A DNA stretch of 64,000 nt from Escherichia coli (GTDB lineage Bacteria > Pseudomonadota > Gammaproteobacteria > Enterobacterales > Enterobacteriaceae): NCBI RefSeq assembly GCF_017348835.2, contig NZ_CP071375.1. One strand, 5' to 3'. Positions 37,258 through 41,012 of this stretch are shown here, piece by piece. The notes under the pieces were generated by a model, which saw only the letters and a list, made by a program, of their open reading frames with translations, did not search any database and was not told the origin of the DNA. A program made the translations under genes and the position numbers. Positions within the stretch are counted from its first letter, which is position 1; each line of letters opens with the position of its first letter.

Positions 37258-39243
37258 TTAATTTGGGGTTACGATATTCACCCACAAATCGAAATTATCC
37301 AGACAAGCAATAATTTCTTCCAGTTTCGCGCCATTGCCAATAATTTTGGCTTTCTTCGCTTTTACCAGATCCGCCATTTGGGCTTGTCCGGTCAGCACGG
37401 CGTGCAGATCTTCACGGCTGATGTAGAAAGAGGCGTCAGCTTGGGATTGCAGCGTTTTACGGTAGTTAAGCACGCTATCGTTCAGCGTCAGGTTGAGGTT
37501 ATCGCCGTTGCTCATATTGAAGTTCAGGCTGATATTTTTACCCGCGGCTTTCGCGCTATCGAGGCGAACGGACATAAAGTCGAACAGCATTTCGACCGAC
37601 ATTCCGCGAATGGTGTCCGGGGAACCGGTGGTGCCGTGGCTGAACTTATGCACCCCTTCGCGCAGCTCTTTCGCGCCGGTCAGGTAGAAACCGCGCCATG
37701 TGGCGGACTCGGCCTGATAGCCCAGCTGTTCAAAGTTATTCGCTTGCAGATTCTTCGCGACCTGGTCACCCGGGTTGGCGGCAATCACCTGTTTCAGCAG
37801 TTCTGCCGACCAGCGGTAATCACCTTGCTTGTTCGCTTCTTGCGCCAGGTTGATGACACGGGCAGAACCGCCCAGCGCTTTCACGTAACGTTTGCCCATC
37901 TCTACCTGACCATACGGATGCAGGTTAGCCGGGGTACCGTCGTAATAGCCAAGATAGAAGTTATACACCGCGCGGGCGTTGTGGCTGACAGAACCGTAAT
38001 AGCCGCGGCTGGCCCAGTTATTGGCAAGCGCAGGCGGCAGCTTAATCATGTCGCCGATTTCATTCATGGTGTAGCCCTGGTTCGCCAGGTGCAGGGTCTG
38101 GTCGTGAATATACTTGATGGTATCGCGATATTTACCAATATAATCATTGATATGCTTATTGCCCCAGACCGGCCAGGTGTGTGGCATAAACAGCACTTCC
38201 GCGTCGTTACCCCACATATCCAGCGTTTCGTTCAGGTACTCGGTCCACTTGCTGGTATCGCGGGTTTTCGCGCCGCGCAGAGTGTAGAAGTTGTGCAGGG
38301 TATGCGTGGCGTTCTCGGCGGTACACAGGGCTTTCAGGGCCGGAATATAGAAGTGCATTTCGGCTGGCGCTTCGCTACCTGGAGTCATCAGGAAGTCAAA
38401 CTCCAGGCCGTCGATAATCATCTTCTCGCCAGTTCTGACGATAGTTTTAGTCGGTGCAATAATGCTCGGGTCGCCCGTTGCCAGCGTCACGCCAAGGCCA
38501 TTACCCACGTTGCCTTGCGCGTTGTGCGGCAGTAACAGACCGTAAGAGTAGAGCGCACGGCGGCTCATGATGTTACCCGCCAGCACGTTTTCGCTGATGG
38601 CTTCGTCCATAAAGCCAGCAGGGGCAATCACCTGAACTTTGCCGGATTTAACATCGGCTTCAGAGATAATGCCTTTCACGCCACCATAGTGGTCGGTGTG
38701 GCTGTGAGTGTAGATAACGGCAACAATCGGTTTTTGCGGACGATGCTGGAAGTAAAGGTCAAGTGCGGCTTTTGCGGCAGGCGGCGTCACCAGCGGGTCG
38801 ATAACAATAATGCCTTTCTCGCCCTCAACGAACGTAATGTTAGAGATATCCTGGCCGCGCACCTGATACATTTTATCGGTGACTTTGAACAGGCCAGAAA
38901 TACCGTTGATTTGCGACTGACGCCACAGGCTGGGGTTTACGGTTTCCGGCGCTGCGGCATTAATATCAAATTTGTAATCGTCCGCGCGGTAGTAAACTTT
39001 ACCGTTCGCATCACGCAGAATACCTTCATCCAGCAGCGGGGCGATAAATCCACGCTGGGCATCGTCAAAATCCTGACGATCGCTAAACGGTAATGATTTG
39101 GCGTAATTCTGATTAACCTGTTGGGTATATTGAGTGGCGGCTTTCGCTTCCTCTTTCGCGTAAGCGGTATTTACCATCATGCCGCTGACGGCGGTTAACG
39201 CAATAACAATCCGGCTCAAACGGAATAACCGAGAGTTATTCAT
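37258..39243 (-). CDS. yjcS: Putative alkyl/aryl-sulfatase (metallo-beta-lactamase fold)
   Basis: 661 aa from [10 protein letters not shown]; signal peptide; HSHTDH metal-binding motif. Confidence 0.9.
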
Positions 39244-39535
39244 ATAAATCTCCATTTATCATTTATGTCGTAAATATGTAATCCATGCAAAATACGTCAT
39301 TTAAAGCTGGCGTTATCATAATTGGGAAATTGCGACTTTAATAAGTGGAAGTGTGAGCGGAACGCGCCATTTTATTAGGCATTTGTGCTGAAGAGGGAAA
39401 AGTACGCGAATTTATTATCTCTGCAAATAATATGAGGTGTTTTATATATTTATTATATATATTGTACTTCGGCAAATACTGAGCACAATTAATCAATGCA
39501 ACCGGTGTTTTTTATTAAAAAACGTACCGGAGCAA

Positions 39536-39813
39536 TGGGCGGTCATGTCGCTGGCACCGCAGGATTCTGTGTTGCTGTGCCAGCCTTTTATTCATGGTCA
39601 ATGAGTGAGGGGATTGATAAAGAAACCAGGTCGTCAGAGCGCACTGATTATCCGCATTACGCCAGTGAAGTTGCACTGGCTTTTGGTTCACGAGTGGTTG
39701 GCCTCGAACTGGCAAAAATGATTGTGGATGCGTGGCTGGGCGCACAGTACGAAGGTGGTCGTCATCAACAACGCGTGGAGGCGATTACGGCAATAGAGCA
39801 GCGGAGAAATTGA
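39536..39813 (+). pseudogene. rpiB: Ribose-5-phosphate isomerase B remnant: degraded 5' end and an internal in-frame deletion
   Basis: IDKETRSSERTDYPHYASEVALA resembles RpiB residues about 31-53, joined directly to the C-terminal FGSRVVGLELAKMIVDAWLGAQYEGGRHQQRVEAITAIEQRRN; the roughly 54-residue block between them, which holds the catalytic cysteine, is missing. Confidence 0.7.
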
Positions 39814-39881
39814 GATTCATCCACTACTTGCATGGATGAGTAATGACTAATGTGGATAGAGTTTCTTTTTGAGGTTGGCTA

Positions 39882-40211
39882 ATGAAACGCTTTCCGCTAT
39901 TTCTTTTATTCACCCTGCTCACGCTGTCCACCGTTCCGGCCCAGGCCGATATTATCGACGACACCATTGGCAATATTCAGCAGGCGATTAACGATGCTTA
40001 TAACCCTGACCGTGGGCGAGACTATGAAGATTCGCACGACGACGGCTGGCAGCGTGAAGTGAGCGACGATCGGCGCAGACAATATGACGACCGCCGCCGC
40101 CAGTTTGAAGATCGTCGCAGGCAACTGGACGATCGCCAGCGCCAGCTTGATCAGGAGCGTCGGCAGCTGGAGGATGAAGAGCGGAGAATGGAAGATGAGT
40201 ATGGGCGATGA
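39882..40211 (+). CDS. yjdP: Secreted small protein with charged DDRRRQ-type repeats
   Basis: 109-aa ORF; signal peptide MKRFPLFLLFTLLTLSTVPAQA; C-terminus of R/Q/D/E repeats. Confidence 0.85.
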   Translation: MKRFPLFLLFTLLTLSTVPAQADIIDDTIGNIQQAINDAYNPDRGRDYEDSHDDGWQREVSDDRRRQYDDRRRQFEDRRRQLDDRQRQLDQERRQLEDEERRMEDEYGR

Positions 40212-40253
40212 GGTAGGCTAGGGTGAGGGGGCCAGCGCGCACATTCCCTCTCA

Positions 40254-41012
40254 TCACGCCACCCCAATCTCCATCCCATCAAACCCGGCTTCAAACCCCG
40301 ACGGCAGTGCGTTTTCCATCAGCCACGCATCAAACTGGTGGCTGATATGGGTCAGAACCACGCGCGGCGAGCGGATAACCTGATTCAGCGCAAGCACGGT
40401 ATTTAAATCACAGTGATTACGCGGTGCATCCTCGCGCGGCGGGTGGCTGCAATCAATCACCATTACCTGCGGCTGATTATTGCGTAAAAATTTCAGCGTT
40501 TTTTCCGGCAAGCCAGCGGTGTCAGACAGCCACGCCACCCGGCTGTGCGCCGTTTCCAGCAGATAACCGAAGGTCAGTTTTGAGTGGTTGAGCGGCAGGG
40601 GCGTGACCTGCAACCCCTGCAAATCAAACACCACAAACGGTTCTACCGTGTGGCTGAAATCAAGCAGGCCCGGATGTTTAAACAGATCGTCGCAGCCCTG
40701 TTCATCCGGCGGGCCGTAAACCGGGATCGTATCGCCCACGCCCCAGCGCAGCGGAAACAGCCCCTGGACGTGATCCATATGGTAGTGCGTCAGCAAAAAC
40801 TGCTGGAACGATCCGGGCGACCAGCGATCGGCGAGATCGTGCAGCCCGGCGTCGATCAGGGTGATCGCCTCGTTAAACTTCACTACGCCGCTGCACGGCT
40901 GGCGGCGATAGTGCGGCGAGCGCCGCGCTCTGGCGCAGGCCGCGCACTCGCAGCCCCATGCCGGAACGCCCTGTGCGCCGCCGGTGCCGGTGAGCGTGAG
41001 GGTCAGGCTCAT
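40254..41012 (-). CDS. phnP: Phosphoribosyl 1,2-cyclic phosphate phosphodiesterase (metallo-beta-lactamase fold)
   Basis: 252 aa from [18 protein letters not shown] motif. Confidence 0.93.

Follow-up and report, generated by a model that had tools for sequence, protein, structure and literature searches.

YjdP is best accounted for, with slightly less than even confidence, as a Sec-exported, non-enzymatic periplasmic rod that is directly induced by RcsB. The protein is encoded in nearly every strain of Escherichia coli. The gene analysed here is carried by a 64,000-nucleotide stretch of E. coli DNA (contig NZ_CP071375.1 of assembly GCF_017348835.2; hereafter, the window), in which it reads on the plus strand from an ATG at 39882 to a TGA at 40209-40211 and encodes 109 residues. 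The features of the locus are listed in Table 1. A 1,001-base query covering the 1-kb stretch around yjdP was 100% identical to strain PE164. The window allele encodes His at residue 52 (SHDD; codon 40035-40037), a position occupied by Arg (SRDD) in nearly all other E. coli sequences, and only 3 genome records are at least 99% identical to the window across yjdP.

Table 1 Features of the yjdP locus in the window and in expanded alleles of other strains
Feature	Position	Strand	Basis or remark
rpiB relic, 105-aa ORF	39496..39813	+	BLASTP against RpiB; directly after yjcS
Candidate RcsB box TGAGATTCATCCAC	39811..39824	+	Overlaps the stop codon of the rpiB relic
Candidate -10 hexamer TAATGT	39848..39853	+	Exactly 23 nt after the candidate RcsB box
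Shine-Dalgarno GAGG	39871..39874	+	Read from the sequence, 7 nt before the ATG
yjdP coding sequence	39882..40211	+	109 codons plus stop
Sec-type signal peptide, residues 1-22	39882..39947	+	n-, h- and c-regions, A-x-A rule; cleavage predicted between AQA and D
Imperfect 9-bp repeat (TTCACCCTG CTCACGCTG TCCACC), LFT-like triplets	39909..39932	+	Signal-peptide hydrophobic core
Conserved N-terminal amphipathic helix, residues 23-40 (DIIDDTIGNIQQAINDAY)	39948..40001	+	3-4-3-4 hydrophobic spacing
Acidic linker, residues 41-61	40002..40064	+	Probably disordered; AF2
Heptad-repeat charged helix, residues 62-109	40065..40208	+	Repeat finding, AF2, heptad parsing, dN/dS
phnP, convergent downstream neighbour	40254..41012	-	RefSeq annotation of strain PE164
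(LFT)n expanded alleles	L004 431-536, L005 431-545, L006 431-527		9-bp in-frame arrays

The protein itself is not a new finding. It is already catalogued, and named for exactly its DDRRRQL repeat, as evidenced by the curated families NF041443 and PF28054 and by RefSeq annotation at this locus in 5404 of 5426 complete E. coli genomes (counted with a query consisting of yjdP and 30-nt anchors). The ORF scored 148.2 bits against the NCBIfam equivalog NF041443 ("DDRRRQL repeat protein YjdP"), the cutoff of which is 90 bits, and residues 1-103 aligned with positions 1-101 of 101, that is, with the full model. Relatives of the protein carry a precomputed assignment to Pfam PF28054 ("YjdP"), and an older Pfam release returned no family either for the query (E <= 1) or for any of 15 relatives (E <= 0.01). 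The family is small, as 50 cluster representatives were retrieved among 1.84 billion proteins at E <= 0.001, several of which are fragments or unrelated charged-repeat proteins. Named members occur in Escherichia, Shigella, Citrobacter, Klebsiella, Buttiauxella, Cronobacter and Entomohabitans. Alignment of 15 members from at least six genera revealed a common organization, consisting of a signal peptide, an ADIIDD..QAIN motif, an acidic linker and RRRQL(D/E) heptads. We regard yjdP as a genuine stand-alone gene restricted to Enterobacteriaceae. A literature search retrieved mentions of yjdP and no study devoted to it. Relative to the catalogued protein, two modest additions are reported here, an RcsB-type promoter footprint and a polymorphic (LFT)n array in the signal peptide.

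The N-terminus of YjdP is composed of MKR, a 15-residue hydrophobic core (mean Kyte-Doolittle value 1.83) and PAQA followed by D, with Ala at both -3 and -1 of the predicted signal peptidase I site. An A-x-A motif followed by D or N is present at this site in 15/15 family members examined. We infer from these features that YjdP is exported through a cleavable Sec signal peptide. No Cys is found in the 109-aa protein or in E. coli YjdP sequences, so YjdP has no lipobox and is not a lipoprotein. Residues 23-40, which follow the predicted cleavage site, form the most conserved non-repeat block in the alignment across genera, and the acidic linker next to it varies in both length and sequence across the family.

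The remainder of the protein is a run of six and a half heptads (DDRRRQY DDRRRQF EDRRRQL DDRQRQL DQERRQL EDEERRM EDEYGR). The repeat is detectable in both the DNA and the protein. Tandem Repeats Finder reported 3.5 copies of a period of 21 at 40065-40137, and 2 copies of a period of 42 at 40068-40150. At the protein level, lag-7 identity within residues 61-109 was 26/42, whereas composition-preserving shuffles gave 7.6 +/- 2.3. The observed value was not reached by any shuffle (0/20000), even when the best of lags 2-14 was taken. Residues 61-109 are 33% R, 20% D, 14% Q and 14% E. Hydrophilins and LEA-like proteins are defined by high hydrophilicity and a Gly content above 6%; YjdP was rejected as a protein of this type, as Gly accounts for 4/87 residues (4.6%) of the mature chain.

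An AlphaFold2 (AF2) model obtained from the 15-sequence alignment predicts one continuous helix spanning residues 55-108, with pLDDT values of 89-97 over residues 61-100. The model also features a signal-peptide helix and a low-confidence helix at residues 18-40, and assigns no secondary structure to residues 41-54, pLDDT being lowest at residues 48-50. The initial annotation is thus in part borne out by these analyses. Its naming of the gene as YjdP is confirmed by the NF041443 match and the RefSeq annotation, and the signal peptide it described by the n-, h- and c-regions and by the cleavage site conserved in the whole set of 15. The string RRRQYDDRRRQFEDRRRQLDDRQRQLDQERRQLEDEERR, which it had quoted as a charged repeat tail, is found at residues 64-102, and its single highly charged helix is recovered as a prediction.

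Within the tail, oppositely charged residues form 18 pairs at each of lags 3 and 4, compared with 1 same-charge pair at either lag. One heptad position is hydrophobic in 6/6 units (Y, F, L, L, L, M), and the other six positions are not, except for Tyr107 in the C-terminal partial unit. A canonical coiled coil, in which both the a and d positions are hydrophobic, was rejected for the tail, as only one such position is present. Because opposite charges are spaced at i+3/i+4 and each heptad has a single hydrophobic position, the tail is predicted to behave, most likely, as a salt-bridge-stabilised rod of the single-alpha-helix type rather than as a classical coiled coil. The charge-pair pattern of single alpha-helices is present, yet the conserved hydrophobic stripe remains. 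Textbook single alpha-helices lack a conserved Leu/Tyr/Phe stripe, and they typically use Glu, which favours helix formation more than Asp does. Foldseek searches of the PDB with the monomer and tandem AF2 models gave no match better than E = 7, and a sequence search of the PDB with YjdP, the best hit of which had E = 2.4, retrieved no related solved structure. Relatives of YjdP carry automatic JGI labels such as "membrane protein involved in colicin uptake" and "Skp family chaperone", which are attributable to resemblance to long periplasmic helices.

Heptad number, which the initial annotation proposed to compare across strains, varies from 5 to 8 (102-123 aa), and every length variant is in frame. 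The 109-aa protein with six full heptads dominates complete E. coli genomes. An allele with one unit fewer (102 aa) is found in ~18/5405 complete-genome records, and the exact 102-aa protein is indexed in 2561 blocks of public assemblies. E. albertii YjdP reaches 123 aa through a 14-aa (42-bp) duplication, Cronobacter YjdP has seven heptads, and six is the commonest number across genera (12/15 sequences). As the repeat tract varies in this manner and the gene is transcribed, the initial annotation is not refuted by its own condition of an invariant tract and a protein not detectably expressed or exported.

A second in-frame repeat lies in the hydrophobic core of the signal peptide. In the window gene, the copies of this 9-bp unit are all imperfect; in some E. 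coli strains, the unit is repeated perfectly, as (TTCACGCTG)n, and encodes (LFT)n. The array expands by 2 to 7 units, adding 6 to 21 residues to the core, and alleles of 115, 118 and 121 aa, as well as a 393-nt gene in one strain, were identified. A probe consisting of three perfect repeats (TTCACGCTG x3) matched 517 complete-genome records at >=99% identity, corresponding to ~10% of E. coli genomes. Those expanded alleles that have been sequenced belong to a single allele background, which suggests expansion by slippage within one lineage. A longer hydrophobic core could hinder cleavage of a signal peptide, and (LFT)n expansion may thus change the processing of YjdP.

In the RefSeq annotation of PE164, the gene order is yjcS (-), a 105-aa "RpiB/LacA/LacB family" ORF (+), yjdP (+) and phnP...phnI (-). 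The 105-aa ORF is almost certainly a non-functional relic, as it retains only residues 29-53 and 107-149 of RpiB, behind a foreign N-terminus. The als operon and most of rpiB are missing in the window (39256-39813), and ~1564/5426 complete E. coli genomes share this als-less/rpiB-relic haplotype. The statement of the initial annotation that yjdP sits beside an als/rpiB junction is imprecise and finds no support here, the neighbour being the rpiB relic. The gene and the phnP/yjdM end of the phosphonate cluster are convergent in every case, and yjdP lacks a conserved operon partner.

The flanks of the gene vary among strains. The slot upstream of yjdP is occupied by the OI-167 island in O157 (PMC10128022). 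A hybrid histidine kinase/response regulator gene is located directly upstream of yjdP, with a spacer of ~68-84 nt, in O157 and JX21CE8 (L007, L008) and in Entomohabitans/Citrobacter (L014, L015). In these lineages the first ~13 yjdP codons also differ (MKRHSTLFLF...), which suggests that an island boundary or recombination breakpoint lies inside the 5' end of the gene. On the other side, in a Citrobacter metagenome contig (L015 4487-5157), an insertion comprising a HigB-like toxin gene and an HTH antitoxin gene separates yjdP from phnP, providing further evidence that both flanks are insertion hot spots. K-12 (L010 761-906) and many other strains carry a ~104 bp GC-rich palindromic insert in the same spacer, which resembles a boxC/REP-type element and is shorter in O157; it has been listed as a G-quadruplex-hairpin candidate (PMC5100583). 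Only the last ~30 nt of this insert are found in the window spacer (40212-40253). A terminator in the spacer was considered and rejected, as the spacer folds no better than shuffled sequence (z = -0.03), and a terminator scan of 39200-40400 returned nothing useful near the 3' end of yjdP.

Expression data link yjdP to envelope stress. Blocking lipoprotein transport with a LolCDE inhibitor raised yjdP RNA 9.5- and 10.6-fold, together with osmB, osmC, bdm, wca genes, rcsA, ivy, cpxP and osmY (PMC5105897). The response was attributed jointly to Rcs, Cpx and sigma-S, yjdP being assigned to no single system, and bdm and osmB were labelled RcsB-dependent (PMC5105897). The candidate RcsB box upstream of yjdP fits 8/9 specified positions of the consensus TN(G/A)GAN4TC(T/C)NA (PMC7913699), the exception being the last base, which is C instead of A, as also in the osmC box. 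A relaxed motif of this kind is common, and the 64-kb window contains 12 strict RcsB-core matches, with 18 expected by chance; the case for the box consequently rests on conservation and spacing rather than on the motif alone. In six lineages (E. coli, the O157 island context, Cronobacter, Buttiauxella, Entomohabitans and Citrobacter), a 14-nt box with the consensus TGRGAWTYMTCCNC is located 71-73 nt before the ATG. In 6/6 lineages the box is followed by exactly 23 nt and then by TAnnnT, and the rest of the spacer has diverged. The genes found upstream of yjdP in these lineages are of four kinds, namely rpiB, a hybrid histidine kinase, an SSF transporter and an unannotated gene. The purine-rich block at the Shine-Dalgarno position is also conserved in the upstream alignment.

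As the motif alone is not rare, the layout was compared with that of known Rcs-dependent K-12 promoters, for which we chose rprA, osmC and bdm, taken here to be RcsB-dependent. In rprA, TGAGACGAATCTGA at -49 to -36 from the annotated 5' end is followed by 23 nt and TACTAT, and 6 nt separate this hexamer from the annotated 5' end. osmC (P1) features TCGGAATATCCTGC, 23 nt and TAGTCT, and bdm features CAGGACTAATCTTA, 23 nt and CATGCT. By analogy with rprA, transcription of yjdP would start near 39860, giving a 22-nt leader. We consider direct activation of yjdP by RcsB likely. A generic sigma-70 scan called no promoter in 39200-40400; a promoter that depends on an activator would be expected to escape such a scan, yet the result lends it no support. 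No published assignment of yjdP to the RcsB regulon was retrieved in our literature search, the available supplements of two stress-response papers do not list the gene, and Rfam detected no RNA family at the locus. The resemblance to periplasmic stress proteins noted in the initial annotation is backed by expression and by the RcsB-type promoter layout and not by homology, there being no CpxP/Spy-type match in the older Pfam release.

The conserved hydrophobic stripe and a conserved charge gradient keep antiparallel self-pairing as a rival to the solitary rod. The tail would then be an oligomerisation module in which helices pair, most plausibly antiparallel, via the Leu/Tyr/Phe stripe. The N-terminal heptads, which are mildly positive, would lie opposite the negative C-terminal ones of the partner chain, and the product would be a periplasmic coiled coil of two or more chains. 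Every seventh residue is hydrophobic and strictly conserved, with a conserved Gln before it, the charge per heptad passes from +1 to -2 along the helix, as it does in most family members, and AF2 applied to a tandem fusion again gave both long helices confidently (pTM 0.47 versus 0.36 for the monomer). However, only one of the two core positions is hydrophobic, and the other would be Arg in every heptad; variation from 5 to 8 heptads would shift an antiparallel register; and the tandem-fusion output covers confidence and secondary structure only. We consider self-pairing possible but doubtful. Binding of the Arg-rich repeats to a polyanion (LPS, anionic phospholipid, peptidoglycan-associated polymers, colanic acid or nucleic acid), as suggested by the initial annotation, appears distinctly improbable. 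Arg makes up 33% of the tail, heptads 1-3 each have three consecutive Arg and a net charge of +1, and yjdP is co-induced with colanic-acid genes. The net charge is nevertheless -1 for the tail (16+/17-) and -9 for the mature protein (19+/28-), which leaves the proposal unsupported. The charge moment was no greater than in shuffles, either for heptads 1-3 (p = 0.25) or for the whole tail (p = 0.61), and a cationic face drawn by hand on a helical wheel, with Arg flanking the Leu stripe, was rejected on the same grounds. Moreover, every Arg is paired with an acidic residue three or four positions away (i+3 or i+4), an arrangement that favours salt bridges within the helix.

Regulation and coding status leave room for other readings as well. 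yjdP could respond to stress via Cpx or sigma-S rather than RcsB, with the upstream box serving another factor, which we hold to be unlikely. The 70-nt region upstream of yjdP contains no direct repeat of the CpxR type (GTAAA-N5-GTAAA), and the box and 23-nt spacing reproduce those of rprA, osmC and bdm exactly. On the other hand, the only expression study names three systems and leaves yjdP unassigned (PMC5105897), and ChIP/expression data for an acid-resistance regulator list the gene as repressed, with a binding site inside it (PMC5217608). That the ORF is spurious, or a decaying low-complexity frame without function, is hardly credible and is effectively refuted already by conservation. 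Comparison with a Citrobacter orthologue (L015) gave a dN/dS of 0.08 overall. By segment, the ratio was lowest in the repeat (0.023), intermediate in residues 23-60 (0.077) and highest in the signal peptide (0.38); all of these values are approximate because dS is near saturation. Relaxed values are typical for signal peptides, and the value for the repeat indicates constrained sequence rather than drifting filler. The gene is present in 5404/5426 E. coli genomes, its length variants are all in frame, its architecture recurs in Klebsiella, Buttiauxella, Cronobacter, Entomohabitans and Citrobacter, and its promoter is likewise conserved across genera. What speaks for a spurious frame is that yjdP is lost in places. 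In strain FLI21 (L009 2531-3636), an IS1 after codon 53 splits it into two annotated pseudogene halves, a natural knockout, and in the viable reduced-genome strain DGF-298 it lies within a 68-kb deletion (PMC10652928). The gene is, on both counts, dispensable. A more elaborate version of the preferred reading remains a long shot. According to it, the RcsB-induced periplasmic rod would be tuned by its two in-frame repeats, heptad number setting helix length and the (LFT)n core, lengthened from ~15 to 21-36 residues, possibly anchoring the protein in the inner membrane in ~10% of E. coli strains. Experiments on Lpp length are reported to show that Rcs signalling depends on periplasmic dimensions; under this long-shot reading, a spacer made under stress and differing in length among strains might in turn influence the geometry of the envelope or sensing by Rcs.

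Returning to the RcsB-induced periplasmic rod without such tuning, YjdP would be a small non-enzymatic envelope protein made when Rcs senses damage to the outer membrane, lipoproteins or peptidoglycan, a role suggested by the promoter layout and one RNA-seq study. As at rprA and osmC, RcsB would act directly on a box whose centre lies ~42 nt before the start site. Judging from its sequence, the product would lose its signal peptide and be set free in the periplasm as an acidic protein of 87 residues. The conserved amphipathic helix (residues 23-40) would be a likely docking or self-association surface, joined by the flexible acidic linker to a ~50-residue helix (~7 nm) of DDRRRQL-type heptads. 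In the stressed envelope, the protein could act as a spacer, a shield or an adaptor. With its box, -10 element and start site defined, the promoter footprint makes direct control by RcsB a prediction that is both specific and testable, and the alleles that differ in helix length and in signal-peptide core length form a natural series that may be used to probe the rod in the stressed envelope.

YjdP may be set beside several known systems. CpxP, Spy and ZraP are small, helical, Sec-exported (in YjdP, by prediction) and induced by envelope stress. YjdP was rejected as a member of this group, since a Pfam match is lacking in all 15 members and LTXXQ motifs are absent from the sequence, and it is predicted to be a rod instead of a cradle. 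TolA domain II and Lpp also place helices of several nm, charged or built on heptads, in the enterobacterial periplasm. Homology of YjdP to them is not detectable; its common allele is neither membrane-anchored nor lipid-modified, and each heptad contains a single hydrophobic position, unlike in the Lpp trimer core. A further parallel is found in the single-alpha-helix (ER/K) domains such as those of myosin VI/X and caldesmon, which share with the YjdP tail the dense i+3/i+4 opposite charges, the lack of an a/d hydrophobic core and a long uninterrupted helix (in YjdP, by prediction). YjdP differs in using Asp/Arg/Gln instead of Glu/Lys, in having one conserved hydrophobic residue per heptad, and in being bacterial and predicted to be periplasmic.

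At the level of the promoter, yjdP shares with rprA, osmC (P1) and bdm a 14-nt box of the form TNRGA-N4-(T/C)CY-NN, a 23-nt spacer and a hexamer in which positions 2 and 6 are A and T, respectively. It differs from them in that its dependence on RcsB is a candidate only, and its box ends in C, as at osmC. Within the NF041443/PF28054 family, the window protein features the same signal peptide, DIIDD motif, heptads and position convergent with phnP, and shows no difference of substance; it has His52, where most E. coli have Arg, and its neighbour is the rpiB relic instead of an intact rpiB.
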